A stretch of 64,000 nt of DNA. Origin: a bacterium (lineage in GTDB: Bacteria; Hinthialibacterota; Hinthialibacteria; Hinthialibacterales; Hinthialibacteraceae). Positions 35,685 through 64,000 of the stretch are shown piece by piece. The stretch's first letter is position 1. The number at the start of each line of letters is the position of its first letter. The DNA lies in assembly GCA_963662285.2 (NCBI GenBank), contig CAXXMV010000008.1:704001-768000 (forward strand). Reading direction: 5' to 3'. The notes under the pieces are model-generated. The model was not told the origin of the DNA, made no database searches, and was given only the letters and a program-made list of their open reading frames with translations. Both the position numbers and the translations under genes were made by a program.

Positions 35685-37793
35685 TCACTCTTCCATAGGA
35701 TTAGTGTAATGACGAATTAATTCTCCCCAGATTGGATGATTTTGATGTAGCATTAATTTTTCTGTTATCTCAAAACATTGTTTGGAAGAGATTTTCTTCA
35801 CATGTAGATTTTCATCTATTTCATATCCACTTAAGTGCTTCGCAAGGAGTCTTAACGGTTTAACATCCATTTTTTGGCTAGAATAATCAAAATTTAAAAA
35901 GTGCCAGAAACGAGCGACACCACCTGAAAGGGTCATTAGCCAGCGACCATCCGGACTGAATTCCGCTGATTGAACAAAATCTTCATGCTGTATGGGGACA
36001 CTCACTGGTTTGCTTGTTGCCACTTCCCAAATTCGCGCGGTTTTATCTTTTGATGCAGTCACTACCCAACGCCCATCTGGACTGAATTTCGCAGACCAGA
36101 CTTCATCTTCATGCTTCAAGGGCTGATTTAAAGAAATCCCTGTTTTTGCATCCCAAACCTGTGCGGTTTTATCCAAGGAAGCGGTAACAATCCAGCGGCC
36201 ATCCGGACTAAATTCAGCTGAATTTACTGTACCATCATGCCTCATTAGATCACTCACTGGTTTTCCTGTAGCTGCATCCCAAACCTGAGCGGTTTTATCA
36301 AAGGAAGAGGTAACTACCCAGCGGCCATCCGGACTGAATTTCGCTGAAGTAATATCATAATACTGATGATTCATAAAACTACTTACAATATTGCCTTTAG
36401 CCACATCCCAGACTATTTCTCTTATATCATAAATGGTGGTTAGTATCCAACAGCTATCTGGACTAAACTCTGCTGATGTTACATCAAAACCAATCGGTTT
36501 GTGCTTTTTTACTGATTCATCAATGGCTATCTCCCATAATAACGCTAGACCCTTTCCATTTGACAGAGGCGTCATATCCTCTGAAATAGTCAACAAAAAG
36601 TGTCCATCCGGACTGAATGCCGCTGAATTTACTTTACCATAATGCCTCATCGGCTCAATCACGAGTTTACCTGTGGCGGCCTCCCATATCCGTGTTGTTT
36701 TATCATCTGATGCGGTCACTACCCATCGCCCATCCGGACTGAATGCCGCTGAATTTATTTTATCATCATGCTTCATCTGCTCACCAACTGGTTTAGCAGT
36801 GGCGGCTTCGTAAACACACACCGTATTAACACCAGAAGTACTCACTACCCAACGGCTATCTGGGCTAAATTTCGCGGAAGTTACAGGCTTTTCATGTTTT
36901 ACTTTAGAAACCAATCTTACCCATGGACACTGATTCAGAAGAGTAAACATGCGGACTCGGGCTGTTATAAATTCCGCATCTAAGTTTAAGGCATAATCTA
37001 AATAGGCCAGCGCGGTATCGGGACGATCTTGTTCAATCTTCTCACAAGCTATATAGAAGAATGTTTTAGCGGCATTTTTTCTTATCGTCTGTTCCGCTCT
37101 TTGCCCTTTTCCCCATTGGACATAACTATAAGCGGCTAGTCCCGAGATGATAGTGAAAAACAGAACAGAAATAAAACTGGCCAGAATGGCTTGTCTTCGT
37201 CTGCGCTGTTTGTCCCGCTGTATGAATAAGTCAAAACCAATGCCTGTTATTCCCGCAACAATTTTAATAAAAGCATTTCGTCTTCCATCTTTTCCCTCTC
37301 GCACATCGGCGGCGATCGGTTCGGTTCGAATCACACTCATACTGCCGTCGTCATTTAACCGATACCGCAACGCTTCAGGAAAGCATTCTACCATGTCACC
37401 CGGTAGTTTATCGAATGCATTGGGTTCGCCAGCAACAATCAAACACAGTACACGGTTCTCTCATCCCAACGATTTAAAATACTGAATCTCTTCATTAACC
37501 CAAATTGATTTTGCCGAATGTGAAGAGCAGATCACAATCAAAAAACGGGATTGTTGCAATGCATCATGAATACATTCACCGAGGTCGGAGGATGTAGGTA
37601 ACTCCTCCCGATCCCGAAAAACAGGTAAAAGCCGCTTCGGGATCGTTGCACCTCGAAGTTCCTGCCCAACAAACTGATTGGGGATTCGGTACGTTTCCAA
37701 GAATCGATGAAGTTTCTTGCCCCAATTCGCATCCATATGGCTATAACTAATGAAAGCCCAGTATTTATAGTTGTTTGTTTGTGTATCGTTCAC
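35685..37793 (-). pseudogene. TIR-TM-TPR-WD40 receptor split by one in-frame TGA (37461-37463)
   Basis: TIR AFISYSH…FRDREEL…WVNEEI continues in frame as YFKSLG*ENRVLCLIVAGEP; then a TM helix and many FSPDGRWVVTAS-DKTA WD40 repeats. Confidence 0.85.
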
Positions 37794-48800: not shown

Positions 48801-49053
48801 AAAACGGTCGGCTGCGCTGTATTTCATCAAGGCATACTTTAAGAACTAACATTTCCTTTTGGTGAGTTTCATCTATTGATATGGTCTCAACTCCCCAACG
48901 CAAATCGATAGATTCTAGATGGTGACGTCTTTCACGTAGACGCTCTTCCAATTCAGGAAATACAACATTGCGTAAATAATCTCTTTCCGCTTGCATATCT
49001 ATAAACGTACTTGTAATAAAAATTGGTCGTGTTTTCCAGTGAGCAGAAGTCAT
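42853..49053 (-). CDS. DUF4062 (TIR-like)-NACHT/STAND-TPR-HEAT-FGE-sulfatase multidomain protein
   Basis: IFITSTFIDMQAERD…DLRWG…GDRYG…SVTALEI; Walker A GRTGSGKS, Walker B LLIDALNQ; TPR and HEAT repeats; GTFMMGS…RLPTEAEWEYACRAG…PNAWGLYDMVGNVMEW…GFRL. Confidence 0.9.
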   Translation of the reverse strand: MTSAHWKTRPIFITSTFIDMQAERDYLRNVVFPELEERLRERRHHLESIDLRWGVETISIDETHQKEMLVLKVCLDEIQRSRPFLIGLIGDRYGWVPPKERMAAATQEASFESDLEGKSVTALEIEYGVLKSPSQQKRCFFYFRESFDYDRMTLAQSSHFSEQHAGEPARAERLRALKERITQELPDRVRSYRADWKSDSDGTIQVYNLEDLGNQVLEDLWNELNEETLEFAHQSVSSWQEQERSILNTFVEQRGRDFIGRADIIKTLMKHVTSIALKDEKWGICITGRTGSGKSALFAYMHRMLESSDVLLLSHAAGISQQAGQVDAMLLRWTEELAQFLSIENPLAEKDTHSTKYQNDLESRPVEQETRQGFSTEEIENTFFTILGQTSLKRRVVLLIDALNQFERSPRASYMTWLRRILPDNVRLIATTIPGSESESLQQRKGIDLLPLSLLNTDEAESIIKTICARYHRTLNQKVLQILLDKQNADDEPSLGIPLWLELAVEELNLLDADDFKRAHQQYSGTDEERLLAMMCDTTQSFPPDVEGMYGFMLEHAEEIHGKEWAESFANLIAVSRQGWREKDIRILLPRIMAQLYPEISTDDCPWNDLRFASLRRTFRSHIVQKGEQGQWDFFHTKMREAIYHRYLSDTEKEKSIHLGIADYLSDLDSTDLIQFSNLMFHYIGADAKLMAAKYYARLLFEVTKNQHWGPTWSLAEHIIRNQLETNPKSDSETVDFGPGFDWVLSLLDKSQLKPYERINICMKFHEFLLNALESHTPLILRLRFMQCVRDILQNIIESGSSEFSQQHGLSVCHITVGGMLMDQGNLPDALHSYRKAQSIHDRLTNTDTGNPEWQRTLAIIHGKISMVLEAQDNVDEAVQECDTAIEICKFLIEKDPDNIQWKSEFSAIFFQYSDLLLKKNLSEALRLNIDNVYKNALAIQKQCVEIYGGNEQWHYRYARGLIQYGDVLIELGKTNEAQEAYHSAYAIREYFASIYPENARLQLDLSDCETRIGDLFFNQGDTALGLEKYQSALAIRERIAALDPGNAQWQHRVSQMYFTMAIVHKQMGENEKANHWIVRCRDILSHMKDHGMYLDVQSIQLLRILSQSEAMSTDKMNSVVQSGFITQWDALIMEILKLKEDELIQDQDKAPTVPLTKEDEIKNCIQSLKHHSAFVAGKAAQKLGAMKVVDSLPYLVNLLQNPSGLVLGEVRNAIKVFGEQSIPFLMDGIQHTDESIRANSIDLLNVIRYRLTWDGNIYDLPEEAVSALLNALHDPVPSVWKEAAFAICDIGERDPDVLAALDTFLQETENRILPKVQEIISKAESMGNFEKLNVANSLDSLGEIYLRLCDGEKAKGLLESALQIYEMLYDADHLTVALTNIHLGDAYRDMMEYDDAMTFYNKAVKFSVAQKVLTGEFSNCASKAFNISYIISDIKELQEATLSKRLEILKPCNGSQVDRMLLAIIECYNDPSAELRERAITLIKEALDNEIIKKNKPKALRVFVSAVHDDSEQIRSKAIATLRNHYADTAEARLALREAFDDTNEYIAYSAIVALSEIAKNSRHAVEVLIDAQQDKNPIVRLQVAGELIQIGQCVNESLALILDSLNSSQKILRLHAFLIVSSLNNSGLDDLYHDWSVHYSAINSAIPALKEALDDPSLKIRKIALSALSKIEGEPEITVPLLIDAIRGKPEGVFEEAVEGIRHIGAAAKEAIPDLIEIIKNHEKYSADGMVLPIQSAGAIGKMGSDAKSVIPELIEVFPDHPVLAIEAFACLSPRDTEALTLLNKALEDDDDIIRGEAKLVIEKLEEKWAKESASSNIESSKSETVTIDLPTITIDLPNLPSNAKPLKMVQIPAGTFMMGSPDNDYWRDKDEIQHPVTLGQPFYLGVYVVTQAQWSAVMGTNPSYFYNQINHPVENVSWNDCQEFIEKLNQMGKGVFRLPTEAEWEYACRAGTVTRYFWGNDEEKCIDYVWRLHETNLQTGEVGLRLPNAWGLYDMVGNVMEWCHDLYGKYKLSAQIDPIGPLNGKNRVLRGNHWYFNVNRSAKREFKSPDYTMGYLGFRLVKE

Positions 49054-49409: not shown

Positions 49410-51125
49410 CTACTTCACGATTTTCTTTCCTACTTTTTTCAGATAATCTGGAATATTCTTTACGGCATCCCGGTCATAGTCTTTTGTTTCTTCATCCAGG
49501 TCTTGCCACTCTTTCATATCTGGATGAGTTCGTTGTTTTATATCATTTGGCCCTTCAGTAAAATTTTCCAAGCGGTTAAAGGCAAGCCAGCGTTTGTGTT
49601 CCATTTCCGCAAGAATTTCTATATCTTCCTTAGAAAAATGATATTCTTCAACTTCGCTAGTTGCACATATGATTTGAAGACCAAGTGTGCGGAGTTTGAT
49701 TCCAATGTGCAGCGCTTGAAGTCTGTTGGATTCGCGATAATACATATTTAACTGATTCCAGGATTTGTGAGACTCCGTCATCCCAAAGTCATTTTTTTTT
49801 GCTGCGGATTCTAAATAATTTTTATGAATGACTTTTGCCAGATGGTCTAGTTCATCTTCAACAATACATTGTAATGTTGCCGTTTCATTCAATGCACCAA
49901 AATAGTTAAAAGCCGCATCCCGAAATTCAGAGTTCATATAACAGGATTGATCAACATCGGCAGGAATTCTTACAAAGATGGGAATTTTATATTTTTTTAG
50001 TTGTTGAGAAATATTATGAGGATATAAGAATGACTTGCGCTTTTCATTGAAACAAAATACAGCGGATATTATCGCATTTTTATTGTCCAGCCATTTCGTG
50101 AATTGTTTATCAAGGGTTTCCTTTTCAATGTCGGCATGAATAAATTCTATATCAGCCAGTGTATTGATTTGTGGATATTTTGCATATAATTCTTGCTTTC
50201 GGTTTTCCGAATCTAAATCGATAATAGATATTAATGTTTTTTGCTGATTTGCCATTTGATAGAGTTGAATGGCTTTAATAACTAAAATTTCCCCCAAACA
50301 TCCAAATCCTATAAGAATTAAATGGATAAAGTTATTGGAAGAAGGCATGATGGGGTTATAATCCAGCGGAGATTCATTTAATAGTTTCCTAGCCATGATC
50401 TCATACAAGTTGATGATTTGAAACTCTAATCCTGAATGCGGATTCAAGAATAAGTCTTTATCTCGTAAAACAATACACATTTTTGAGTCAATTATATGAA
50501 TATAGTTTCTAAGGATATTACATTTTTTTGATGCAACTGAATCTAACAAAGTCTGATGTACTTCATAAGCAAGTTCCATATTCTTAATATCTTCATCAAA
50601 AAAAGCAAATAAGTATGATGCTTTTTGAATACCTGCTTCAAGCAAAATAGAGTATTTTGTTGGTTCTGCTTGGATATGGTACAAATCCTGATTGTTGAAA
50701 TCATTTGAAACAATATCCAGACTAACATCAGCAAGCAGTACAACGTTTTTTTGCTTTTCTAACAAATCACAAATAAGATGTTTTGCCATTGGGGAATAGC
50801 CACAAACAATGTAGTGAGAATTAAAAAATCGAAGGATAAGTGATATATATTTTTTATAAAACAACGCGATGAATCCTAAAACCAATGTAAATGAGGATGT
50901 AACGACTCCCAGCCATCGAGCCAATTCTACTTGCCATGTTTGAGGAAGATCATCATATTCAAGAATAAATAATTGAATAGTGCTGTAAAGACGATCCCAA
51001 AGACTCCATGCAGGATGTTCAAAGAAATAACCCCAAAGCCCCAAAAATATTGTCCAACAGATTAGACAGGACAAAATTGAACCGCGATTGACTTCGATGT
51101 ATTTGATACCTTTCAAAATATTCAT
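49410..51125 (-). CDS. 2TM (channel-like)-RCK/TrkA_N x2-RyR domain protein
   Basis: TM1, pore-helix-like DRLYSTIQLF, TM2; Rossmann motifs HYIVCGYS and HLILIGFGCLG; RyR repeats LAKVIHKNY…WNQL…ESN and LAEMEHKRW…HPDMKEWQDLDEETKDYD. Confidence 0.85.
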   Translation of the reverse strand: MNILKGIKYIEVNRGSILSCLICWTIFLGLWGYFFEHPAWSLWDRLYSTIQLFILEYDDLPQTWQVELARWLGVVTSSFTLVLGFIALFYKKYISLILRFFNSHYIVCGYSPMAKHLICDLLEKQKNVVLLADVSLDIVSNDFNNQDLYHIQAEPTKYSILLEAGIQKASYLFAFFDEDIKNMELAYEVHQTLLDSVASKKCNILRNYIHIIDSKMCIVLRDKDLFLNPHSGLEFQIINLYEIMARKLLNESPLDYNPIMPSSNNFIHLILIGFGCLGEILVIKAIQLYQMANQQKTLISIIDLDSENRKQELYAKYPQINTLADIEFIHADIEKETLDKQFTKWLDNKNAIISAVFCFNEKRKSFLYPHNISQQLKKYKIPIFVRIPADVDQSCYMNSEFRDAAFNYFGALNETATLQCIVEDELDHLAKVIHKNYLESAAKKNDFGMTESHKSWNQLNMYYRESNRLQALHIGIKLRTLGLQIICATSEVEEYHFSKEDIEILAEMEHKRWLAFNRLENFTEGPNDIKQRTHPDMKEWQDLDEETKDYDRDAVKNIPDYLKKVGKKIVK

Positions 51126-52210
51126 AACTGTATCGACTTCGTTAGCTTTGGAATCATTTGATAATCTCTATCTTCAAAGGGTTTTTGAAATTCCAATAGC
51201 AATTCTTTCATTATGGGATGTATTGCGCATTGCTCCTTTACGTGGCAGTATTGGCAGGTAGTTTTTCCGGTAATTCCCAATTTCCCGACACCCGCCAACT
51301 CACCGGATCCCGAAGCTTTTATCACGGTTCCTTTCCCTTGAGGTGTTAACCAGTAAGCAAAATGACAATGCAGCGGCTCGACTTCAGCCCAATCGCCTGC
51401 TTGTAGGGTTTTAACATTCCAAGTTAATGAGCCCCGCTGGTTCATTGGTTTAGACCAAATTTGCATTTCACCCGATAGAATCCCATAGATTTCAACAGCA
51501 GGAAGTCCGTGAACATGGACATCCTGTTTGTCTTTGGGCGAGAAAAAACTCCATGTAAATCCCAATCCTTGTTTTTGATAGGGTAAATAAGGATCGGCTA
51601 CACGGAGATTAAAGGCTCGATTTCCTGCAGAAAGAATTTCATCTACGGTCTGGCTTTTAACAACTCGGACTCCGGTTTCTTGCAACGAAGCCCAATGACA
51701 TGCCAATGCATCCATGGATGGAATTGTTGATGTTGTATCGATAACCTCAGAAAAATGACTTTGAACATAATTAGCTATCGTTCGGACATTTGGCTCTTTT
51801 GTATCTGCAAGAACTTCATTCAACAATTTCCAGGAAATAATATCTTTTTGCGTATTCAAGTTAGCCCAACCAGATTCAGTTAATGAGATTGTCACTGGGT
51901 ATAAATACCATTTTTTGTTTAGCCCCTCGTAGCGTGGACTATTATGATCGTTTAACAAAAGTGGCAATTCATCTTCTAAAAAGTAACTTCCTGGCTTCAG
52001 TCCAAGATCTTCCTTTAAGGGACGTACGAGTGCTTTATAAAGCGATTCCCCCTGACGTAACTTTGTTGAGGGAAATGTTGGATGTCCTTGTTTTTCTATT
52101 AGCAGAAATTGTACAGGGTCATGAGAAGATAATTTTCTGCAAATCAAACAATATAATACATACGAAATGGACATATCTCTGACATTTTCTCGATTTGATT
52201 TTTCACACAT
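51122..52210 (-). CDS. Nudix-like plus cupin fusion protein
   Basis: Degenerate Nudix box GESLYKALVRPLKEDLGL; cupin motifs HVHGLPAVEIY and GDWAEVEPLHCH; CQYC…C near the C-terminus; ATGA overlap with the RyR gene. Confidence 0.7.
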   Translation of the reverse strand: MCEKSNRENVRDMSISYVLYCLICRKLSSHDPVQFLLIEKQGHPTFPSTKLRQGESLYKALVRPLKEDLGLKPGSYFLEDELPLLLNDHNSPRYEGLNKKWYLYPVTISLTESGWANLNTQKDIISWKLLNEVLADTKEPNVRTIANYVQSHFSEVIDTTSTIPSMDALACHWASLQETGVRVVKSQTVDEILSAGNRAFNLRVADPYLPYQKQGLGFTWSFFSPKDKQDVHVHGLPAVEIYGILSGEMQIWSKPMNQRGSLTWNVKTLQAGDWAEVEPLHCHFAYWLTPQGKGTVIKASGSGELAGVGKLGITGKTTCQYCHVKEQCAIHPIMKELLLEFQKPFEDRDYQMIPKLTKSIQL

Positions 52211-53094: not shown

Positions 53095-56000
53095 ATGCTT
53101 CATTGCCCTAAATGCCATTCTTCAGATTTGACATTTCGTAAAAAGAAAAACGTCTATATTTGCGATAACTGCGATCATGAGTTTCATACGAAACAATCAT
53201 TTACCGCAAAGCGGATTTTTATCAGTTACGGACATGATGAACATGCCGCGTTGGCAGAAAAACTCAAAAACGATCTTGAAAAGCGTGGACAACTTGTTTG
53301 GTTCGATCGCAACCGGATTCCGCTGGGGCCGGATTGGGAGCTCAGCATCGAACAAGGTCTGGCTTGGTTGAGAGAGAACAGGGAAAACAGTCTCTTTATC
53401 ATCATCATGACACCCCACTCCGTGCGGCGACCGGATGCTTATTGTCTAAATGAAATAGCTTATGCGGTTTCTAAAAAATTCGACATTTTACCGATCATGC
53501 TGGTATATTGCGAACCGCCACTGTCGATCCTTCGCTATCAATATCTAGATATGCAGGATTGTCTTCCAATCGATATTCACGCAACACGCTATGAGAAGCA
53601 TTTTGAACGACTGTGCCAAGCGATCGAGCAGAACCATCGTGATTTTGAGGGTAATCAAGCATATTTCATGAAGTATCTTGATCCATTTTCGCTCTCATTC
53701 AACGCTCAAGTATTATCGAAATTGCCGAATTTTGTGGGACGAGGGTGGGTGATAGAAGCAATCGACCGCTGGCTCAGCGATCCTGAAGGTTCAAAAGTGT
53801 TTTGGATCAGCGGCAAGGCGGGCATCGGAAAATCATCGTTGTCGGTTTGGCTTGTTGAGAATCGCCCGGAAATCGCCGCCTTTCACATGTGCGAGTATCG
53901 CAACAACAATAAATCCGATCCCAAAATATGTCTGCTGTTTCTAGTTTATCAACTCACCCAAGAACTGCCTGATTACCAGGAGAAACTATTACAGCGCGAC
54001 ATTTCCAAAGACGTGCTGGAAAGCGACGCTTCGACGTTGTTTGATTCGCTAGTGGTTGAGCCGCTTTCGATGATCAAAGCGCCTGAACACAACTTCGTGA
54101 TTTTGATCGATGCGTTGGATGAAGCATCGCAAGGTCGTGTTAACGACCTGGCCGAATTCATCGCCAACGACTTCAAGAAGACGCCTTCCTGGCTACGCCT
54201 CATTGTCACCAGCCGACCAGAGACGAATATCCAGACGTATTTTCAATCCATAGATCCCTTTGATTTGGACAAGGCCAAAGATCAGAACGAAAACGACATC
54301 AAAACCTACTTACAAACTGCCTTGAAGCCGTTTTATCCCGATCAACCCATTTCTTCCGGCGTCTTGCAGACCATCGTCGAAAAAAGCGAGATGGTTTTCA
54401 CCTACGTTCAACAAATCATCCAAGAATTGCACGCAGGCCGACTGTCGTTGGATCGGTTAGATGAATTTCCCCGCGGATTGGGCGAATACTTTTTTACATG
54501 GTTTAAGCGACAATTTCCCGAAGCCGACAAACGCAAGCATGACAGCCAGGGGACCGTAGAGATATACAAAAAGCAATGTCTCCCCTTGTTGGAACTCCTG
54601 GCTGTCGCCCAAGAGCCATTAGCCTTGAATACCATTAAATCGATTTTGAACTGGGGCGATTATGGCGATGACATCATTAACTTTTTCGGTTCATTGCTCA
54701 TCAAGGATGAGACGGTTCATCCCTTTCACAGTTCGCTGATGGATTGGTTGGAAGATTCACAACGGTCGTATCCCTATACCATCCGCGCCATCGCCGGGCA
54801 TCGCCGTATGATGGAGTATGGTTGGGGAGTGTATGAAGACAATGTCCAAACCCTTCCTGTGTATTTTTTAAGGCGCCTTCCTCTTCATCTAATGGCTTTG
54901 GAGGAATGGGATCGTATCCGACAGTTTCTTTGTGAACCGCATATTCTCTCTCATTGGTCGAGGGATAAGCAGCAATATGAATTGCTCGCGCTGTGGCGGC
55001 AAATTGGCGAGGCCCTGGACATGGTCGCTCTATATATGGAGGCGACTGTACATCTGGGGGCATCGGATTTTTCACCTCGGCGAAAGCAGCAGATTTTACG
55101 TTCGATCGCTTCGTTTTTGGCTTTGAACGGTCACTATTCGTCGGCGGAAACTCTTCTTCGACAAGCGTTAGCGATTCTGATGGAATTAGAGGAAGCGTCT
55201 TTGATCGATGTAACCGAATGCAAGGAGGATTTAGCGCGAGTTTATACACATCAATACAAGCAGGCCCCGGCGCTTCGTTTATTTAAGGAAGTGGAAAAAG
55301 CATATGAAAGCGAATTGGGCTTGGATCACTCTGATATGGCAGATTTATTCACCCATATGTCGGATTTGTATTATCAGCAATGCCGATTCACTGAGGCAGC
55401 GCATTATTGCCGTCAGGCTCTTAATATCCATAAGAAACATTTTCACTTCAATCACTCTCTTCTCGCTGATTCGCAGCATGCCTTGGCGAATATCAATCGC
55501 TCTCAAGGGTGTGGTGAAGAAGCGGAATCGCTCTATTTGAGATGTCTGAACATTCACCACGAAAACTTGGGAGATGATCATATCAAGGTCGCCGACGTGT
55601 TGCACGATTTGGCGATTCTCTACTTTCAACAAAATAACATTACGCAAGCGGAATACCATTTCAAACGCGCATTCGAGATTCGCAACCGTTTTTTGGGGGC
55701 GTCTCACCCTCAAATCGCGGATACATTGAGCGCGTTGGCGGACGTCATGGTCTCCAAAGGTGACCTTACGGGCGCCGAACGGTATTATCAAGACGCCTTA
55801 CAGATGCTGGAGACGTCATTCGGCAAAGAAAGCGTAAAGCGGGCGGACGTTATGGAGCGATTCGCCGAGCTCTATATACGTCAGGATCGCTTTGAACCGG
55901 CGATGCGGCTGCTCGATGAAACTCTCTCCATTCGAAATAAGTATTTGGGTCCCATTCAGTTCGACACCATGCGCGCACGGCGTAAGAGAACACAATTACA

Positions 56001-57720
56001 GCTACGTTATGAAGGACTGGATAAAAGAAGTGCGTTTGCTAATCGAAATGAGTTCCTTGATATCGAAAGCAGACTGGCTGAAACGTACGGTCAGGCAATC
56101 TATGATGCATTTGTAGAGAAAAAAAGTCCGGAACCGGGCGATTTACTGCCGCCCCAAACCGCCGTACAGTTACAAAATGATCTTGCCCTACTTAGGGATG
56201 TGATAGAAATACGCTTGTATGCGGATGTTCTTTCCTACACCATGGTTCAATACCGCATTTGTGAGCTCAGTGGAGATTGGGGCGATGTGGGAAAAGACCG
56301 CGCCGATTTTAATTTGATGCAAGTACTGCTTTCTCTTCCGCCCGATGAAGAGATCCAATTTCACCACTATTCACTATATGCAGAGGCGCGAGAGGAATTG
56401 ATGGGAACGCTGCATCTTGATCGCTTGAATAAAGAATCGATCGATGCGTTGAAAAAAAAGATGGAATGGTTCGAGTTAAAGATATTAAACAAAAAATTCA
56501 ATCTGAAATCGAAGGAGATTAATCGAATTCTCGCATGGTTGAAATCCAATCATCGATTGACAAACTCATCGGAATGCTTGTTATGGGGAAGAGCAGATTG
56601 CTTCGGTATGCAAAACAACACAATATCCATCTACCACCATGAGGAGATGCGTTCACCTTTGCTGGCCAATTATTGCGTATCATTTTCGAAAGATACGGAA
56701 ATCATCTTACGTGAAGAAGGGATCAACTATGTGATGTATATCAAATGGGCGAGTGTATTTAATGGTTCGGCGTTTGCGCCGACGGCTAAGGAACAAATCT
56801 CGGATCGTCTAAAACAATGCGCGCTGGAGGCCTGCCGAATCGGAACGCGACGGGATTTTGAACTGCAGAAAGATTTTTTCATCAGCGCCATGATGGAAAA
56901 TATTTTTTATTATGAATTAACCGACAAATCACTCAATGAGGTGGTTGGAAGTATATCCGTTGGAATGCAATCTGGATTAAGGAACTTCCACAATAAAAAT
57001 TTCCTGGCGCACGTGAATTGTCTTACATGCGAATGGCATCCGCTTGTCGATGGCAAAGTCAGCCCCATCGGCAATATTTTAGACACAGCTATCGAGAAGA
57101 GCGATTACAACCGCGCCTTGCAACTTCTATATATCTATCTCAGCGACGGCTGGTTTCTAGACACCGACATCTCTTTTATGTATCCCTATACTCATATTCT
57201 GTACCTTCTTATTCTTCCTTATCTGAAAGAGCCTTTGTATGTCGACTTTGAAATGATGCAAAAGGATTTGCCGACACTGTTTGATTTTATGATAAGTGAA
57301 TATAAGCGAATGCTCGAACATTTGCATAATTTCCTTCTTAAACGAAGTTATATTGATGAGGGAAAAGAATGCCATTTTGAGAATATCAAAGATAAGATTC
57401 TCTGCTTCCAAACACTTTATGAAACGTTGGGTACACATTTCGACACGGAATGGGTGAAATCAATTAATTTTTGGAGAAATTTTTTCAGCAGAGTTCTTCG
57501 AGAAGATCCCTTGTTTCATCAGGCATTGACGATTCAGATCCAAGAATATCAAATGGATTTCTATGCCAAATTGTTGAGTCGTTTTCATGGCCAAAAGCAA
57601 TACGATCCCAGCCCGGCTGGTGTTGAGAATTATATCATCGAACAAATGACGGATCGAGGGTACTCCATTCGAGATAAGCAGATGATCTATCTACCTTTAT
57701 CCGAACTTGGACTCGATTGA
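53095..57720 (+). CDS. Zn-ribbon-TIR-NACHT/STAND-TPR protein with unassigned C-terminal domain
   Basis: CPKC…CDNC; IFISYGH…WFDR…YCLNEI (TIR Glu present); FVGRGW, GKAGIGKS, ILIDALDE, IVTSRP; kinesin-light-chain-type TPRs. Confidence 0.9.
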   Translation: MLHCPKCHSSDLTFRKKKNVYICDNCDHEFHTKQSFTAKRIFISYGHDEHAALAEKLKNDLEKRGQLVWFDRNRIPLGPDWELSIEQGLAWLRENRENSLFIIIMTPHSVRRPDAYCLNEIAYAVSKKFDILPIMLVYCEPPLSILRYQYLDMQDCLPIDIHATRYEKHFERLCQAIEQNHRDFEGNQAYFMKYLDPFSLSFNAQVLSKLPNFVGRGWVIEAIDRWLSDPEGSKVFWISGKAGIGKSSLSVWLVENRPEIAAFHMCEYRNNNKSDPKICLLFLVYQLTQELPDYQEKLLQRDISKDVLESDASTLFDSLVVEPLSMIKAPEHNFVILIDALDEASQGRVNDLAEFIANDFKKTPSWLRLIVTSRPETNIQTYFQSIDPFDLDKAKDQNENDIKTYLQTALKPFYPDQPISSGVLQTIVEKSEMVFTYVQQIIQELHAGRLSLDRLDEFPRGLGEYFFTWFKRQFPEADKRKHDSQGTVEIYKKQCLPLLELLAVAQEPLALNTIKSILNWGDYGDDIINFFGSLLIKDETVHPFHSSLMDWLEDSQRSYPYTIRAIAGHRRMMEYGWGVYEDNVQTLPVYFLRRLPLHLMALEEWDRIRQFLCEPHILSHWSRDKQQYELLALWRQIGEALDMVALYMEATVHLGASDFSPRRKQQILRSIASFLALNGHYSSAETLLRQALAILMELEEASLIDVTECKEDLARVYTHQYKQAPALRLFKEVEKAYESELGLDHSDMADLFTHMSDLYYQQCRFTEAAHYCRQALNIHKKHFHFNHSLLADSQHALANINRSQGCGEEAESLYLRCLNIHHENLGDDHIKVADVLHDLAILYFQQNNITQAEYHFKRAFEIRNRFLGASHPQIADTLSALADVMVSKGDLTGAERYYQDALQMLETSFGKESVKRADVMERFAELYIRQDRFEPAMRLLDETLSIRNKYLGPIQFDTMRARRKRTQLQLRYEGLDKRSAFANRNEFLDIESRLAETYGQAIYDAFVEKKSPEPGDLLPPQTAVQLQNDLALLRDVIEIRLYADVLSYTMVQYRICELSGDWGDVGKDRADFNLMQVLLSLPPDEEIQFHHYSLYAEAREELMGTLHLDRLNKESIDALKKKMEWFELKILNKKFNLKSKEINRILAWLKSNHRLTNSSECLLWGRADCFGMQNNTISIYHHEEMRSPLLANYCVSFSKDTEIILREEGINYVMYIKWASVFNGSAFAPTAKEQISDRLKQCALEACRIGTRRDFELQKDFFISAMMENIFYYELTDKSLNEVVGSISVGMQSGLRNFHNKNFLAHVNCLTCEWHPLVDGKVSPIGNILDTAIEKSDYNRALQLLYIYLSDGWFLDTDISFMYPYTHILYLLILPYLKEPLYVDFEMMQKDLPTLFDFMISEYKRMLEHLHNFLLKRSYIDEGKECHFENIKDKILCFQTLYETLGTHFDTEWVKSINFWRNFFSRVLREDPLFHQALTIQIQEYQMDFYAKLLSRFHGQKQYDPSPAGVENYIIEQMTDRGYSIRDKQMIYLPLSELGLD

Positions 57721-57744: not shown

Positions 57745-60700
57745 TTGAGCAGTACAGACGACGCGTTCTTGACAAACAGAGCATTAATCGAGGTTTTTAT
57801 GCTAATCGATTTTCTGACTTATCAACGAGAGACCCAAAAGCAACCGGCTCCGTCTAAGCCACTCGATTGGACTTGCGGGGAATTGCTTTGTGATGTCAGC
57901 TATCTTCAATACACGGGGCCGTCGGAATGGGAGTGCACTGGTTTATTCGGCTCTTCACATACATGCAAAGATATACACCGGAATCGCCGTTTTCTCTGCT
58001 TGGTTCCACGGGAAGAAATCTATCGCAAAGGTTGGGTGCGTAAGCGATTTGCGTTTGAGTACAAACGGCTTCTCACCGCCTCTCCCTCCCCCTTTCTGAT
58101 GATTCCCGTAGGATGGATCGAAAGGGTTGATTATGTCATGTGCATCTTGGAATGGAATGACAGGGTTCCGCTGCAAACCTTGTTAGAATCATCACAATCG
58201 GCGCCATCCTCTTCTCCACTTCCCTTTGCCGATCCCCAAGTGCGAGCGCGCGATGCACTCGAATTGTTTTTCCAAGTCGCCACGGGAATGAAACAGTTGC
58301 ATGACAAAACAGGGTTGATTCATCACAATCTTCATCCCGGAACCCTCTTTTGGAGTCAAGAGCGTCAGGCGTTTCAAATCAGCGGTTTTCTACTTTCGCA
58401 TAGTCTGTATTGGACTCGGGAGGATGAACCTGAGTTTGAAACGACATTTCCGGACAACAATGTATCTTCAGAAGATAGTATCTGCGCATTTCAATTTCCC
58501 GAATCCGTCCGTCCCTATCTTCCTCCAGATGTTCTCGATAATCCCCTGCATGCGGAACCCTGCGACGATATATATTCTCTCGGCATGATCGTATATCAAA
58601 TTCTGCATAATTTTAACGATGAAGTCGTCAAGCGGTTTCCAACGGATGGTTTTGAAACGCCCGAGTGTGGAAGTGATGGGCTTCTTACCTTACTGCGCCG
58701 ATGCCTGGCGACGCAGAGGGATGATCGATGCATTTCGTGGGACGCTCTTCTCGACGATGTACGTAATATGTTGTCTGAAAATAAGAGTCGATCCCTGCAA
58801 AAACCCCAACTCATTCTTTCATGCGACGACTGTGTGAATCTATCCTGGGCGCACATCGACATGAGTAAATACAGTCGCGCCGGGGAATGGGCCAACCAAG
58901 CCCTCGACATCGAGTCGAATAATTCTTTCGCTCAAATAGCCAAGATGATCACTCTTGGGAAAATCGGTCGCTTGGATGAAGCCTTTGAAATTGGATCATC
59001 CTTACTTCGTAGAGAGCCGGAAAACGCCGAAGCGCATAATTATATGGGTTATTTGTATTACCAAAAAGGAGATTTCAAAACCAGTCTTGAACATTTTGAA
59101 TCCAGTTTGCGTTACGATTCCAACCTAGCCTGCAACTATAACAACCTCACTGTACTCTATCTTGTTCACGAACGCCTGAAAGAAGCGCGGGACTGCTTGA
59201 TGCGGGGCTTGGAACGCTTTCCCTTCGATCCCGATCTATTGGTTTCATGGGTTAGTGTATCCGAATCGCTAGGAGACCTCCCGAGCGCATTGGCCCATCT
59301 CGAAGAAAAACTCGCGGACGATTGGGATGGCTCCATTCACAATGCGTATGGTATGGTGCTGGAAAAAAAAGGCCGCCTCGATGACGGAATAATCCGGCTA
59401 GAGGCCTTTCTTTCGACCAGGCCGAGCGCCCATCTCGCTTGGAACCGGTTGGGAATTCTTTCAGAAAACGCCGGACATTTGGAAAAAAGTCTGGAAAGTT
59501 TTCAAAAGGCCATCCGTCTCAAACCACATGACGAAAACTATGTGGGCAATTGCCTACGGATTTTAAACTCATTGGGTTGTTTGTCTGAGGGAATTCAACT
59601 TGGAGAACAATGGTTGTCCTGTTATTATCCCGCAATGTCTGTTAGCAGCCTATTGGGAGTGCTATTGACTAATGCGGATGAGATAGAACGCGCGGTAGAG
59701 CCTCTTCAGAACGCTCAACGCATTGCCCCTTGCGATGAGACATTGGCGGGCAATCTGGTTCACAGTCTGCGCATTGCCGACCAGGTAAATCAAGCCATTG
59801 AATTCGGCGCCGAATGGTCAGTAACTCATAAAGGTGGATCGTATTTTTGGAATCAATTGGGGAACGCCTATTTTGGCTTGGAGCGTTTTGCCGAAGCAAT
59901 TCCCTGTTATCAGAAAGCTCTGGAATTCGAACCGGATGATGCAGAAATCGCATCCAATTTATTAAATGCCTATTTTAAAATAAACGATTTTTCCGCTTGT
60001 ATGCAATTCGCCGAAGCATGGCTTGCAGACCATCAGGGCAACGAGAATTTTCATACTTACTTAAGCATCTCCTTCATCAACACGAATCAGATGGAAAAAG
60101 CCATCTCTACCTTAAAAACCGCTATCAGCAAGCAGCCTGAATTAGCAAATTCACTGAAAGAAGTGATTGCCAAATTAACTCAGAGTGGGCAGGAACAACG
60201 GGCGATTGAATTCGGCGAACTCTGGCTCCTACACAATCCTCCGACGCTGGATGTTTTGAATCAAATCGGAATCGTCCATTACGAAAACAAACGCTTTGAA
60301 GAGGCGACCGCCTGTTTTCGAAACGCACTCGAACTGGAACCAAGTAATAAAACTGTCGCATTGAATATAATGAATTCCTACGATAACTTGAATCAGTATC
60401 AGCGGTGCATCGAATTTGGAGAAAATTGGCTCCAACACAATCCTCCGACGCTGGATGTTTTGAATCTTATCGGAATCGTCCATTACAAAAACAAACGCTT
60501 TGAAGAAGCGACCGCCTGTTTCCAAAACGCGCTCGAACTGGAACCAAGTAATAAAACTGTCGCATTGAATATAATGAATTCCTACGATAACTTGAATCAG
60601 TATCAGCGGTGCATCGAATTTGGAGAAAATTGGCTCCAACACAATCCTCCGACGCTGGATGTTTTGAATCTTATCGGAATCGTCCATTACAAAAACAAAC

Positions 60701-61842
60701 GCTTTGAAGAAGCGACCGCCTGTTTCCAAAACGCGCTCGAACTGGAACCAAGTAATAAAACTGTCGCATTGAATATAATGAATTCCTACGATAACTTGAA
60801 TCAGTATCAGCGGTGCATCGAATTTGGAGAAGATTGGCTTAATCGGCACTCGCCAGATGATACAATATTCGGACATCTTGTCGATGCGTACACTCATTTA
60901 GGAAAGTATGATAAAGCAGAACAAGCGTTAGTAAAAGCACCGAAAGAATATCAATATTTGAGATGTATACTAAACGCTTACTATCAATCCAAACAATTTG
61001 ACAAAGCCATCGATTGTGCAGAACAATGGAAAGATCAATACAATCTTGAGCCGGAGTTATGGAATTCCTTGGGACAAATCCATTATGATAAAAAACAATA
61101 TTCGGAAGCCTTAGAATGCTATGAAGAAGCATCGCGATTGTCCCCTGAAAATCTAGATTACCTTAATAACTCTGCTTTGGCCTTGTCCTCATTAAAAAAA
61201 CACGATGAAGCGATTGCCCGAATGGGCTATGTACTTGAGCAACAGCCTAGTACTTTACTTTATGCACAAAATTACTTTACATGCCTTAAAGACGCCAACC
61301 ACAAAGAAAAAGCTGTTGAATTTGCGAAAGGGTGGATGGAAGCAAATACTGTGGATGAAATTTTATTGAATTCTGTAGGACTAACGTTAGATGATTTAAA
61401 GAAAGATAAAGATGCAATTGAATGCTACCAGAAGGCTCACGAACTGAATCCTCAAAATGCCGGGTATTTAAATAATATGGGAATGAGTTTCAAAGCACTC
61501 GGCCAATTCGATCAAGCCATTACTTTAACGAAGCAAGCCATAGAACTGGAGCCGAAAAATATTGTTATTATTGTGAATCATCTTATCTGTTTGAAAAGTG
61601 CAGACCGTCTGGATGAAGCGATCCAAATCGGCAATGCTTGGATTCAAGAACATGGCGAAAAACCAATAGTTTTAAATCAATTGGCGTTGATTCACGAACA
61701 AAAATTTGATTTTGAAAATGCGCTGGTCTGTTATGATTCCACACAAGAGAAAGAGAAATACCTTGCCGCATTAATAGATTACGGCCGGTATGAAGCCCTG
61801 AATCAAGCCTTGGAATGGTATGACTGGATGGAGACGGCGTGA
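57745..61842 (+). CDS. Ser/Thr kinase-fold (probable pseudokinase) plus extensive TPR array
   Basis: QVATGMKQLH, IHHNLHPGTL, QISGF, YLPPD, DDIYSLG, RCL…R scaffold; many TPRs. Start may be 57799. Confidence 0.85.
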   Translation: MSSTDDAFLTNRALIEVFMLIDFLTYQRETQKQPAPSKPLDWTCGELLCDVSYLQYTGPSEWECTGLFGSSHTCKDIHRNRRFLCLVPREEIYRKGWVRKRFAFEYKRLLTASPSPFLMIPVGWIERVDYVMCILEWNDRVPLQTLLESSQSAPSSSPLPFADPQVRARDALELFFQVATGMKQLHDKTGLIHHNLHPGTLFWSQERQAFQISGFLLSHSLYWTREDEPEFETTFPDNNVSSEDSICAFQFPESVRPYLPPDVLDNPLHAEPCDDIYSLGMIVYQILHNFNDEVVKRFPTDGFETPECGSDGLLTLLRRCLATQRDDRCISWDALLDDVRNMLSENKSRSLQKPQLILSCDDCVNLSWAHIDMSKYSRAGEWANQALDIESNNSFAQIAKMITLGKIGRLDEAFEIGSSLLRREPENAEAHNYMGYLYYQKGDFKTSLEHFESSLRYDSNLACNYNNLTVLYLVHERLKEARDCLMRGLERFPFDPDLLVSWVSVSESLGDLPSALAHLEEKLADDWDGSIHNAYGMVLEKKGRLDDGIIRLEAFLSTRPSAHLAWNRLGILSENAGHLEKSLESFQKAIRLKPHDENYVGNCLRILNSLGCLSEGIQLGEQWLSCYYPAMSVSSLLGVLLTNADEIERAVEPLQNAQRIAPCDETLAGNLVHSLRIADQVNQAIEFGAEWSVTHKGGSYFWNQLGNAYFGLERFAEAIPCYQKALEFEPDDAEIASNLLNAYFKINDFSACMQFAEAWLADHQGNENFHTYLSISFINTNQMEKAISTLKTAISKQPELANSLKEVIAKLTQSGQEQRAIEFGELWLLHNPPTLDVLNQIGIVHYENKRFEEATACFRNALELEPSNKTVALNIMNSYDNLNQYQRCIEFGENWLQHNPPTLDVLNLIGIVHYKNKRFEEATACFQNALELEPSNKTVALNIMNSYDNLNQYQRCIEFGENWLQHNPPTLDVLNLIGIVHYKNKRFEEATACFQNALELEPSNKTVALNIMNSYDNLNQYQRCIEFGEDWLNRHSPDDTIFGHLVDAYTHLGKYDKAEQALVKAPKEYQYLRCILNAYYQSKQFDKAIDCAEQWKDQYNLEPELWNSLGQIHYDKKQYSEALECYEEASRLSPENLDYLNNSALALSSLKKHDEAIARMGYVLEQQPSTLLYAQNYFTCLKDANHKEKAVEFAKGWMEANTVDEILLNSVGLTLDDLKKDKDAIECYQKAHELNPQNAGYLNNMGMSFKALGQFDQAITLTKQAIELEPKNIVIIVNHLICLKSADRLDEAIQIGNAWIQEHGEKPIVLNQLALIHEQKFDFENALVCYDSTQEKEKYLAALIDYGRYEALNQALEWYDWMETA
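60232..60839 (+). repeat. 204-bp intragenic tandem repeat x3 (68 aa, two TPRs per unit)
   Basis: CACAATCCTCCGACGCTGGATGTTTTGAATC recurs at 60232, 60436 and 60640; units are near-identical. Confidence 0.92.
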
Positions 61843-61908: not shown

Positions 61909-64000
61909 ATGAACCTACACTGGTATGACGAACAAATTCAACTTTACAAAAAACTTACTTCCCTCTATGAAAAAATGGCGGCGGGATTAAAACGGCGTCT
62001 GCAAATCGCCATGTCCGAGATGGGGATGGACGCTATCGTTCAGGCGCGTGCAAAAACCATCTCCAGCTATGCAGAAAAGATCGTCCGCAAACAGAGCAAA
62101 TATGCCGATCCTATCCGTCTGATCACCGACCTCTGCGGACTGCGCATCATCGTCGAACGATTGGATGAAGTTCGCCGATTGTGCGATTTCATTGAAACCG
62201 AGTTTGAGATTGATGAAGGAAACAGTGAAGATTGCCTCGAACGTCTGAAGATCAATGAGTTCGGCTACTTATCCAATCATTACATCGTGATGTTGACTTC
62301 CCCCGAAAAAGCTGAAGCGTTCGGCATTACGACGAGCGATCTCGATATCATAAAAACAGTCAAGGGGCTGGATTTTCCGATCAAGGCCGAGATCCAAGTA
62401 CGGACGCTACTGCAACATGCATGGGCGGTTTTCATACATAAGCATCTCTATAAAAGGAAATGGAACCTACCGCGGGCGTGGCTCCGCGAAACATCCCGTA
62501 TCTCGGCTATGTTGGAGGATGCGGACGATTCGTTTTCCCGACTGGTCGAGGAAATTGACGTCTATAAGACACAGTACGGCGCCTACATGACGCCAGATCA
62601 GATGAACAGTGAAATCGAGATGCTGCAATTGATTCAACGTTACGATCCCGGTAATGAATCTCTTGCCCGTGAAATTGCTCGAATCGCGAAGGAAAGCGGA
62701 CGCTGGTCATTGGTGGTGGAAACATTATTGCCGTTTCGCGAATCCGCCGATCCCGACTCTCTTCTCGATCTCGGCAACGCCATTTTGCACATGAAAGATC
62801 CGCTCCAAGTCGATGAAGGCCACCGCCTGATTGAGCGCGCCATTGAATTGTCTGCTAAAAACGCACCAGCCTATATCACCTTAGCCCAATTGTGCAGAGA
62901 AAGCGAACAGACAAAACGTTTGCGCTATTACGAAATGGCTTTTCAGGCCGATCCAAACGAACCCATGGCATTTTGTGGTTTTCTGCTAAACAAAATCATA
63001 GCAGAGCGAAATCGAGATTTTCTAGCATTGCTTCGCCCTCTTATAGAAAATGCCGTCAAACGTTGTAATGATCGAATACGCGCCGGTGTCGATGCTTCCT
63101 CTTCGTATTGTCATATCGGAATATTGCAGATGGCGTTGGGTCGAATGGAATCGAGCGCATCCGCCTTTGCCAAAGCGGCGACATTAAAACCGGTTCCTCG
63201 CGTATTTTATGAATATCGAGATTCGGTGCGTTTATTAATAAATCAGGTTAACAATCAATGGCCCGAACTACTCATACTCGACCAACTATTCGATCTCTTC
63301 AACAAAGCAGAGGCGCTTCAAAGCGGTTCAATCTCTGACATTTCAAACGACTTGCAGACGACGAGCCTGATACGGATTCCCGTTGTCATTGTGGCAGGCA
63401 GCTGCAATGAAGATTCGTCTCACCTCATGGAGGCGCATCGAAAATTGATGACAGAATCGTTTCAAGGATTTCAAGGAACAATTGTATCAGGCGGAACCCG
63501 ATCAGGCGTCAGTGGTCTGGTGGGAGATATGTCGTTGGATATGGGCAACGCCGTGAAACTGGGATATATACCCAAAGACATCGAATCAAATCAACTGCAT
63601 CCTGCTTTCCTCATCCGGAGAACGAAGGGATCAACCTTTTCGACGCTGGAACCAATCCAGTATTGGATAGATTTGCTACAATCTGGGATTTGTCCATTGC
63701 AAGTAAAATTGATCGGCTTCGGTGGTGGGGTGCTTTCAGCGTTTGAATATCGCTTGGCGCTGGCAATGGGCGCCTGGGTGGGCATATTGCCTGATAGCAG
63801 GCGTGAAGCCGCCCGCCTGCTGGACGACGATGATTGGAATGGCTCACCGAACCTTCTTCGCATTCCGTTGGATGCTGGGATTTTACGTTCCTTCATTCAC
63901 CCTGCGCCGTCGGCGGCGTTTGCGTCGGATGATCGCGAGCGAATGGCACGGGGCATTCATGGCGAATATCGAAAAAAACATGTGAAGCGATTGCTGCAAT
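61909..64000 (+). CDS. RelA/SpoT synthetase-TPR-SLOG-(probable RyR) protein, 3' truncated by window; absent from ORF track
   Basis: Manual translation has no stop from ATG 61909 to the end. QARAKTISSYAEK, TDLCGLRII, FGYLSNHY, EIQVRTLLQHAWA; TPR helices; VVIVAG…IVSGGTRSGVSGLVG…LIGFGGG…E; ends ERMARGIHGEY. Confidence 0.88.
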   Translation, partial: MNLHWYDEQIQLYKKLTSLYEKMAAGLKRRLQIAMSEMGMDAIVQARAKTISSYAEKIVRKQSKYADPIRLITDLCGLRIIVERLDEVRRLCDFIETEFEIDEGNSEDCLERLKINEFGYLSNHYIVMLTSPEKAEAFGITTSDLDIIKTVKGLDFPIKAEIQVRTLLQHAWAVFIHKHLYKRKWNLPRAWLRETSRISAMLEDADDSFSRLVEEIDVYKTQYGAYMTPDQMNSEIEMLQLIQRYDPGNESLAREIARIAKESGRWSLVVETLLPFRESADPDSLLDLGNAILHMKDPLQVDEGHRLIERAIELSAKNAPAYITLAQLCRESEQTKRLRYYEMAFQADPNEPMAFCGFLLNKIIAERNRDFLALLRPLIENAVKRCNDRIRAGVDASSSYCHIGILQMALGRMESSASAFAKAATLKPVPRVFYEYRDSVRLLINQVNNQWPELLILDQLFDLFNKAEALQSGSISDISNDLQTTSLIRIPVVIVAGSCNEDSSHLMEAHRKLMTESFQGFQGTIVSGGTRSGVSGLVGDMSLDMGNAVKLGYIPKDIESNQLHPAFLIRRTKGSTFSTLEPIQYWIDLLQSGICPLQVKLIGFGGGVLSAFEYRLALAMGAWVGILPDSRREAARLLDDDDWNGSPNLLRIPLDAGILRSFIHPAPSAAFASDDRERMARGIHGEYRKKHVKRLLQ

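Follow-up and report, generated by a model that had tools for sequence, protein, structure and literature searches.

We analysed a 64,000-nucleotide (nt) stretch of DNA, the window, from a bacterium of the Hinthialibacterota (assembly GCA_963662285.2, contig CAXXMV010000008.1, positions 704,001 to 768,000; G000:C8:704001-768000 of the source genome), and describe here a gene that starts at 61909 on the + strand and runs across the end of the window. The gene is real and intact, and its 825-amino-acid (aa) product consists of a RelA_SpoT synthetase domain, a TPR-like region, a SLOG domain and a two-repeat RyR module. Judging from its sequence, the protein is best explained as a cytoplasmic, sensor-coupled small alarmone synthetase (SAS), both C-terminal modules of which would by kind bind ligands of the adenine-nucleotide or ADP-ribose (ADPR) type. 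The gene is also best explained as part of a mobile immune-type set that includes TIR/DUF4062-STAND NTPases, a channel-like protein of the TrkA_N-RyR kind and a small hydrolase, which is usually Nudix and sometimes HD_4; through its product, alarmone production is probably tied to NAD-derived immune signals. The reading we favour, at slightly better than even, is that the synthetase is gated by a nucleotide and serves a TIR/STAND conflict system as effector or relay, with the Nudix protein as buffer or reset.

Gene structure and domain architecture

The open reading frame (ORF) begins with an ATG at 61909 and is stop-free up to base 64000, covering 697 aa inside the window. Because it has no in-window stop, it is missed by any ORF list that requires one. 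The original prediction, made from the letters of the window alone, had nonetheless recognized the frame, and extension into the genome bore it out: the full-length ORF encodes 825 aa (910-3387 of the genomic locus L002, with the stop at L002 3387) and ends at G000:C8:768386, 386 nt beyond the window.

Four regions follow one another on the + strand. The SAS-like RelA_SpoT synthetase domain (aa 1-235, 61909..62613) was delimited with Pfam, an AlphaFold2 model, Foldseek and an alignment of 88 homologues, and the helical TPR-like region behind it (aa ~236-470, 62614..63318) with sub-threshold Pfam matches and a comparison of the family profile to designed TPR proteins. The SLOG domain, putatively of the TRPM/LSDAT type (aa 490-667, 63376..63909), was assigned from its AlphaFold2 fold and from LSDAT_prok matches in homologues. 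Only the start of the two-repeat, R12-type RyR module lies in the window (63931..64000); it was recognized with Pfam, Foldseek and VIA-align. The earlier domain reading, a synthetase-only RSH protein joined to TPR, a TRPM-type SLOG and RyR, holds; to it we add an overlapping Nudix gene, a second RyR repeat and a synthetase nearer to RelQ/RelP than to CapRel. All of the synthetase motifs on which it drew are in the translation (R47-x-K49..S53..K57, D74-L-C-G-L-R79, G119-Y-L-S-N-H124-Y and E161-IQVRT..HAWA173), as are the two strings that it had called SLOG-like, IVSGGTRSGVSGLVG (aa 525-539) and LIGFGGG..E613. The string ERMARGIHGEY, read as the beginning of a RyR repeat, stands at aa 679-689, and the one to which it had been compared, LAKVIHKNY, is present in the protein encoded at 49410..51125.

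Synthetase domain

Pfam RelA_SpoT (PF04607) matched aa 47-184 (E = 1.5e-15; 57.9 bits versus a cut-off of 27), and no HD, TGS or ACT family matched the 825-aa protein at E <= 1, in agreement with the earlier claim that these domains are absent. The long-RSH model TIGR00691 gave just 22.4 bits versus a cut-off of 499. The YjbM (RelQ) equivalog NF053588 gave 40.8 bits versus a cut-off of 320, and because this score is so far below the cut-off, the protein is a relative of RelQ and not an orthologue.

Across 88 full-length homologues, 16 N-terminal residues are invariant, including R47, K49, K57, D74, R79, F118, Y120, H124, E161, Q163, H177, Y181, R193, A200 and E203. The RxKxxxSxxxK, DxxGxR, GYxSxH and ExQxRT motifs, which have catalytic roles in RSH enzymes, are all present, invariant in the same 88 homologues and aligned to those of 2be3 and RelQ. 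With its active site intact, the synthetase is apparently an active pyrophosphokinase.

We modelled aa 1-240 with AlphaFold2 (predicted local distance difference test (pLDDT) 92.0, predicted template modelling score (pTM) 0.85) and searched the model with Foldseek. The top matches were 2be3 (1.2e-10), RelQ (5dec; TMt 0.78, root-mean-square deviation (rmsd) 3.1-3.3) and RelP (6fgk; 2.9e-9), with the catalytic domains of long Rel enzymes next at 4e-7 and CapRel (7ztb) at rank 43 (1.6e-6). Sequence matches to solved structures gave 2be3 at 1.5e-9, RelQ at 7e-8 and CapRel at an E-value of only 0.9. In the model, the synthetase fold is closest to RelQ/RelP, and nearer to them than to the tRNA-targeting toxSAS CapRel.

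These comparisons bear on the possibility that the target is tRNA, that is, that the synthetase pyrophosphorylates the 3' CCA end as CapRel, FaRel2 and PhRel2 do, with the logic of sensor and partner unchanged. Several toxSAS use this chemistry according to the available parts of the literature, the PADLOC candidate PDC-S33 matches the synthetase domain (9.5e-13) and stand-alone relatives of the domain are found on plasmids and prophages. We consider a tRNA target improbable, given that CapRel is so distant by both sequence and fold, compared with 1e-10 to 1e-8 for RelQ/RelP, and that the small-molecule hydrolases recurring beside the gene (Nudix, HD_4; see below) suit a soluble nucleotide product better.

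TPR-like and SLOG regions

Behind the synthetase domain, TPR_8, TPR_17 and TPR_19 matched the 825-aa protein below threshold (TPR_8, 19.8 bits versus a cut-off of 25.7), and each TPR family matched 2 to 18 of 57 sampled homologues. When the family profile was compared to PDB sequences, designed TPR proteins were retrieved (9qhb, 1.1e-30; 8bu0, 7.4e-20).

For the region that follows, the original prediction anticipated a SLOG fold at 63380-63850 and matches to RelA_SpoT, SLOG/LSDAT and RyR profiles. RelA_SpoT and RyR were found in the protein as expected; no SLOG family matched it in Pfam at E <= 1, and scans with NCBIfam and PADLOC likewise returned no SLOG family. The fold itself was confirmed by an AlphaFold2 model of aa 463-825 (pLDDT 91.8, pTM 0.89) and its structural matches. 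With VIA-align, aa 490-667 matched TM1055 (1rcu) at Z 17.3 (rmsd 2.5, 158 aligned), followed by TRPM entries (TRPM2 chanzyme 8sr7, Z 15.4; TRPM2 domain 7aov, Z 14.9; TRPM7, 14.4; TRPM2 6co7, 13.2) and by other proteins, including MCP (14.8), DprA (13.3), LOG (13.3) and the SLOG domain of ThsA with 3' cyclic ADP-ribose (3'cADPR; 7uxs, 11.2). In Foldseek, TRPM2 entries were the best non-RyR matches of the aa 463-825 model, at ~1e-4 (6d73, 1e-4). No TRPM chain was among the best 60 of 231 PDB sequence matches of the family profile, the likeness to TRPM being one of fold only. Among the 57 sampled homologues, LSDAT_prok was matched at E <= 0.01 in 43, at the same position, and other SLOG families in none. 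The modelled domain is a SLOG fold, and its putative assignment to the TRPM type comes from these homologues.

Two Gly-rich loops are present, SGGTRSG at 527-533 and GFGGG at 603-607. G497, G606 and E613 are invariant in the family, and G523, G528, G529, T530, G533, G603 and G607 are conserved in at least 90% of sequences. Gly-rich loops together with an acidic residue form the nucleotide-pocket motif of SLOG domains, the definitions of which, like those of LSDAT, reportedly go back to Burroughs et al. 2015 (NAR).

RyR module

As predicted from the last residues of the window, a RyR repeat lies downstream of its end. Pfam RyR (PF02026) matched aa 741-820 (E = 3.2e-14; 53.4 bits versus a cut-off of 27.4), which is the second repeat of the module. 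Repeat 1 (aa ~675-735) is diverged (H684-x-x-Y, N716) and invisible to Pfam, and in the structural model ERMARGIHGEY is its start. Residues 653-823 (191-361 of the model) align to two-repeat RyR modules, including RyR3 Repeat12 (6uhe) with a Foldseek value of 1e-6 over ~200 columns, and VIA-align matched the RyR part to 3nrt (Z 9.2), 6uhs (Z 8.6, 152 aligned) and 4erv (Z 8.0). The RyR3 Repeat12 entries that were matched had been solved with ATP or ADP. A HMMER alignment set the region against the repeats of RyR2 and B. thetaiotaomicron; E760, H761 and R763 are invariant, and W764 and D802 are conserved in at least 90% of sequences.

A 2026 preprint (PMC13232231) reports, in the part available, that phage PF02026 RyR domains bind 2'/3'cADPR with nanomolar affinity and that one of them cleaves these signals. 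The ligand residues that it gives for RyDEP are a His, a Trp three residues on, a second His and an Asp, to which H761, W764 and D802 of repeat 2 may correspond by motif and spacing only. No RyDEP chain was among the 60 PDB sequence matches listed for the RyR region.

The two C-terminal modules could also be enzymes, a LOG-like nucleosidase (SLOG) and/or a RyDEP-like glycosidase (RyR), that produce or break down nucleotide signals and would thereby regulate the TIR pathway without executing it. Because the fold comparison leaves TRPM and LOG/TM1055 tied, a catalytic rather than sensing SLOG is conceivable: LOG-type enzymes and TM1055 are among its top fold neighbours, and E613 is invariant after the GGG loop. 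Repeat 2 keeps H761 and D802, and RyDEP uses a His/Asp dyad (PMC13232231, available part). In the same part of that source, however, the founding RyDEP alone cleaved the signals, whereas none of eight tested homologues did so and six of the eight bound them. Moreover, the homologues match the TRPM-type LSDAT_prok and not LOG families, and signal processing would leave an intact synthetase domain unexplained. We think it doubtful, to much the same degree as a tRNA target.

Family, distribution and mobility

A word-indexed protein search returned 119 proteins besides the query, of which 116 are synthetase-SLOG homologues and three are TrkA_N-RyR proteins found via RyR only. In precomputed Pfam annotations, 37 of the 116 homologues carry PF18171, four have an extra N-terminal Nudix domain and ten are ~668-aa forms without RyR. 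An exhaustive search with aa 463-825 gave 5717 cluster representatives at E <= 0.001, 3062 at 1e-10 and 568 at 1e-30. Shorter members of the family (~670-730 aa; P0092-P0111 and loci L040, L047, L051, L060 and L079) end after SLOG without RyR, and there are also SLOG-RyR proteins of ~370 aa that stand alone, from which it appears that the modules were shuffled independently.

In species-representative genomes we found 471 candidate stretches that code for a relative; the 80 best are spread over many bacterial phyla and also represent Methanobacterium, Methanosarcina, Bathyarchaeia and Thermoplasmatota. In related genomes the gene was present in one of 40, at 42% identity. Known plasmids and phages were considered as carriers of the full gene and rejected: none of 31 plasmid and four phage records covers 80% of the query, and those records match aa ~10-270 only, which corresponds to stand-alone synthetases.

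Beyond the end of the window, 1.1-4.9 kb downstream (L002 4506-8333), an IS21 IstB gene is accompanied by a tyrosine integrase and a tRNA-Arg, a common ending for an integrated island. The integrase (L002 7124-8173, -) abuts the tRNA-Arg(TCG) (L002 8260-8333, -), and these genes together mark the edge of the island. The ORF after IstB has no Pfam match and looks by eye like an IstA remnant.

The same genome carries a second, diverged gene set ~380 kb away, with a paralogue at L087 9542-12592 (G000:C8:1147542-1150592) and its neighbours at L087 3043-18080. The paralogue is 1016 aa long and combines two RelA_SpoT stretches with LSDAT_prok (27.9 bits versus a cut-off of 25.4) and RyR; we have no explanation for its duplicated synthetase stretch. 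Upstream of it are a TIR-TPR gene, an ISL3 transposase, a Nudix-like gene of 368 aa and a Nudix gene of 136 aa, and downstream is a DUF4062-STAND-WD40 gene. Six TIR_2 matches were found in the 7.3 Mb of this genome, two of them in the window and one ~5 kb from the second locus.

The gene set is horizontally mobile. Among solved structures, the synthetase domain has its closest relatives in RelQ and RelP, which are housekeeping enzymes, and JGI labels relatives of the protein ppGpp synthetase, as would be expected if the enzyme were simply one more alarmone synthetase, serving nutrient or stress signalling and having nothing to do with conflict systems. Such a role is very improbable for a gene that occurs in so few related genomes, lies on an island that is integrated at a tRNA and carries an integrase and insertion sequence (IS) elements, and has TIR, STAND and RyR-channel genes as repeated neighbours in different phyla. 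The genome, furthermore, already has a canonical long RSH elsewhere (746-aa frame).

Gene neighbourhoods and the Nudix partner

We examined gene neighbourhoods in the best 80 of the 471 loci, fetched with +-10 kb and with ORFs called by script. Three loci with spurious overlapping frames (L011, L054 and L078) were excluded, leaving 77 that were counted. Nudix is fused to the synthetase protein in three loci, directly upstream on the same strand in 18, directly downstream on the same strand in nine, adjacent on the opposite strand in one, within three genes in another three and further away in one, with no Nudix in the remaining 42. It is thus fused or within three genes in 34 of 77 loci, compared with two of 564 ORFs beyond three genes. 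An HD-type gene takes position -1 in three loci (L066 7668-8216, L069 2264-2803 and L080 120-812), directly upstream on the same strand, and all three loci are without Nudix. Their HD_4 scores are 35.2, 24.8 and 20.1 bits versus a cut-off of 27.2, which one of the three passes. The small HD-type gene seems to stand in functionally for the Nudix partner.

With hidden Markov models seeded from Pfam-verified domains, TIR was found in 31 of 77 loci (20 within three genes) and DUF4062 in 21 (16 within three), with either one in 45 (31 within three). The association with TIR/DUF4062 is frequent and not obligatory. Other recurrent neighbours include DUF4062-STAND NTPases and TrkA_N-RyR proteins (within three genes in 21 and 20 loci, respectively), WD40 proteins (11 loci), sigma-54 activators (five loci) and two TIR protein clusters (4 + 2, six loci). 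A protein of ~531 aa (L007 8157-9752 (-) and six other loci) has weak matches to SLATT_1 ('SMODS and SLOG-associating 2TM effector'; E = 9.5e-4) and to DUF4231, and on this basis could be a further membrane effector belonging to these systems.

In the genome studied here, the partner is a 143-aa Nudix gene (L002 3362-3793) just past the end of the window, overlapping the synthetase stop codon by 26 nt. It matched Nudix PF00293 with 76.1 bits versus a cut-off of 21.1. In 28 Nudix partners from homologous loci, E64, E67 and E68 of the REUxEE catalytic core are invariant. When the partner family was compared to structures, the closest were the MutT-related 3grn (1.3e-36), NudI and MutT, with ADPR pyrophosphatases at ~6e-15.

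Sequence comparison of the 28 partners also separated them into two subgroups that correspond to gene order, one of upstream type and the other of downstream type, with the Nudix next to the window belonging to the latter. In several partners the first Glu of the Nudix box is replaced. A Pro ~15 residues past the box is conserved only in the downstream-type subgroup; a Pro at this position is a marker of ADPR pyrophosphatases, which we treat as a lead.

Because an alarmone-hydrolase-type HD gene takes the same slot and the Nudix partners are MutT/NudI-like, we suggest that Nudix or HD_4 buffers the product of the synthetase. There is precedent in the literature: the available part of PMC7229694 describes a small alarmone hydrolase (SAH) that acts as a type IV antitoxin and neutralises a toxic synthetase by degrading its alarmone product, and a Thermus Nudix enzyme degrades ppGpp (cited in PMC3153485, available part).

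The same observations would fit a toxin-antitoxin-like pair in which a toxic SAS is curbed mainly by Nudix or HD_4, in a type IV-like manner, while SLOG and RyR read the cell's own adenylate or NAD pool and the TIR/STAND genes are co-residents of the island. The overlap of the two genes by 26 nt, the 30 of 77 loci in which Nudix is fused or adjacent on the same strand (plus the three with HD_4 instead), the SAH precedent (PMC7229694, as above) and the resemblance of Nudix to MutT/NudI all point this way, as do the ATP or ADP held by RyR3 Repeat12 structures and a TIR density that is high throughout +-10 kb and not just beside the gene. Nevertheless, 40 of 77 loci have no such hydrolase within three genes, which is too often for an obligatory antitoxin. 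The TrkA_N-RyR and SLATT-like neighbours share their sensor logic with the synthetase protein, and the paralogue locus repeats the association with TIR and DUF4062-STAND. On balance, we judge this arrangement unlikely.

Proposed mechanism

We infer from the domains, intact motifs, gene associations and mobility described above a ligand, a direction of signalling, a product, a toxic outcome and a substrate for Nudix, as follows. Activated TIR/DUF4062-STAND proteins would make a NAD-derived nucleotide, either ADPR or an isomer of cADPR. This ligand would bind SLOG and/or RyR and release the synthetase, which would then use ATP to pyrophosphorylate a purine nucleotide, the likeliest product being (p)ppGpp and the next (p)ppApp. 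The alarmone output would lead to growth arrest or dormancy. Nudix would hydrolyse leaked product, or possibly the ligand, thereby setting the threshold and resetting the switch. Gating by a TIR product, which the original prediction had proposed, is suggested by context, namely TIR/DUF4062 in 45 of 77 loci and a TIR-STAND gene two genes upstream on the same strand, and by precedent, namely cADPR binding by phage RyR domains (PMC13232231, available part) and the ThsA SLOG structure 7uxs among the fold neighbours.

Several points weigh against the nucleotide-gated effector. The family is known from sequences and predicted structures alone, and its product cannot be read from sequence. The 825-aa protein gave no direct match to PF18171 (LSDAT_prok, 'SLOG in TRPM, prokaryote'), and its SLOG fold is tied between TRPM-type and LOG/TM1055-type neighbours. 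The MutT/NudI likeness of the partner favours action on the product over action on the ligand, but points to no particular substrate. The census relied on a crude ORF caller, as the three excluded loci illustrate, and within it neither TIR nor DUF4062 occurs in the +-10 kb fetched for 32 of the 77 loci, in addition to the 40 that lack both Nudix and HD_4 within three genes. TIR is also raised further out (21 of 564 ORFs), so that a shared defence island fits as well as a dedicated partnership.

A more elaborate version of the same idea is a two-step relay, in which RyR would capture, and perhaps linearise, cADPR isomers made by TIR, SLOG would read the resulting ADPR and the synthetase would make the alarmone, coupling NAD-derived antiviral signalling to the stringent response. 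Nudix would again reset the system, the TrkA_N-RyR channel would fire in parallel on the same ligand, and the parts would be those of animal TRPM2 (SLOG and Nudix) and ryanodine receptors (R12). We regard this relay as rather unlikely.

Should the favoured effector reading be true, the family would join two major nucleotide-signalling systems of bacteria that have been studied separately, the NAD-derived immune signals of TIR proteins and the alarmones of RSH enzymes. Binding of cADPR immune signals by RyR R12 domains was shown in mid-2026 for phage proteins only (PMC13232231, available part), and the synthetase family would add a host-side role. It would also give a tractable soluble system for the ligands of TRPM-type SLOG and RyR R12 domains, a matter that bears on how the TRPM2 and RyR channels of animals arose and are regulated. 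In scale, the family is substantial, with 568 SLOG-RyR cluster representatives at E <= 1e-30, and it reaches across bacteria and archaea.

Comparison with known systems

In the proposed mechanism, the protein would act as a Thoeris-type effector with a toxSAS-like output, and it belongs to neither family. On all the sequence features compared it is an RSH synthetase, sharing with RelQ/RelP (YjbM/YwaC) a synthetase-only domain and the catalytic motifs. Those enzymes are single-domain proteins of ~210 aa, however, whereas the 825-aa protein adds ~590 residues (TPR, SLOG and two RyR repeats), a mobile immune-type island and a Nudix partner.

Type I Thoeris (the TIR protein ThsB with the SIR2-SLOG protein ThsA) has the same logic, a nearby TIR and an effector SLOG that would read the TIR product, and the ThsA SLOG is among the fold neighbours (7uxs, Z 11.2). 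The head of ThsA is SIR2, in contrast to the alarmone-type synthetase found here, where the SLOG would be nearer to TRPM/LSDAT and RyR, TPR and Nudix are extra. In Thoeris the TIR domain is on the small ThsB, whereas here TIR/DUF4062 are on large STAND NTPases. For the two proteins scanned, PADLOC gave only PDC-S33 and PDC-S07 and no Thoeris model.

The toxSAS are small proteins that are not known to carry sensor domains, and CapRel, a distant match to the synthetase domain by both sequence and fold, carries its own fused antitoxin-like domain. In FaRel/ATfaRel, CapRel and FaRel2, an RSH synthetase serves as growth-arresting effector, with a product-degrading neutraliser possible (PMC7229694, available part), and here Nudix or HD_4 can take the adjacent slot: 37 of 77 loci have one of them fused or no more than three genes away, and the other 40 have neither in that range.

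TRPM2, with an MHR1/2 SLOG and a NUDT9-H Nudix domain, would share the pairing of a TRPM-type SLOG with Nudix, which is fused here in four of 116 homologues and three of 77 loci. It is a cation channel, whereas the present family has an enzyme output and a Nudix that is N-terminal or encoded by a separate gene and is MutT/NudI-like, not NUDT9-like. PF02026 repeats also occur in the R12 region of RyR, in the bacterial single-repeat RyR protein (3nrt) and in phage RyDEP; here they form a two-repeat module as the C-terminal tail of a synthetase.

We found no description of the RelA_SpoT-SLOG-RyR architecture in the literature searched, although supplementary subfamily tables and the papers defining SLOG/LSDAT were outside its reach and may contain a prior mention. 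The main texts of PMC7229694 and PMC3153485, in the parts available, mention neither TPR nor RyR.

Neighbouring genes in the window

The gene set in the window consists of two divergent runs with 884 nt between them. The same-strand run of the synthetase opens with the TIR-STAND gene (53095..57720, +), which in Pfam encodes TIR_2, a STAND NTPase of the NPHP3_N/NACHT-like type and TPR (1541 aa). It is followed after 24 nt by a gene for a 1365-aa protein (57745..61842, +) with a protein-kinase-like N-terminus (Pkinase sub-threshold, 26.7 bits versus 31.7) and a long TPR array that includes TPR-S. The synthetase gene starts 66 nt further on, with Nudix behind it at -26 nt. Nothing terminator-like was found in L002 1-4600, and the promoter/terminator scan gave no useful + strand signal; we suggest, weakly, that the + strand run is co-transcribed.

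Three genes make up the - strand run. One encodes a 2TM-TrkA_N-RyR protein of 571 aa (49410..51125, -), in which TrkA_N, of the RCK-type Rossmann kind, matched in Pfam at 1.6e-07 and RyR at 1.6e-06, and which is a candidate, channel-like co-effector. Its N-terminus has two hydrophobic helices around a pore-helix-like stretch, with no K+ selectivity-filter motif. Overlapping this gene on its upstream side is one for a degenerate Nudix-like protein of 362 aa (51122..52210, -; NUDIX E = 0.0014, 19.1 bits versus 21.1) with a C-terminus that appears cupin-like by eye. The remaining gene (42853..49053, -) encodes a 2066-aa protein that in Pfam combines DUF4062, a STAND NTPase, TPR, HEAT and FGE-sulfatase.

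Further out, a TIR_2 match at 37431-37754 (-; 44.9 bits) falls in a 136-aa frame with one in-frame TGA and could represent a broken TIR gene or, on the island's far side, the boundary of a gene. In the kinase-like TPR protein, a TPR unit of ~67 aa occurs in three near-identical tandem copies (about 60229-60900), which look like a recent internal duplication. The same repeat also yields a repetitive 222-aa antisense ORF at 60229-60897.

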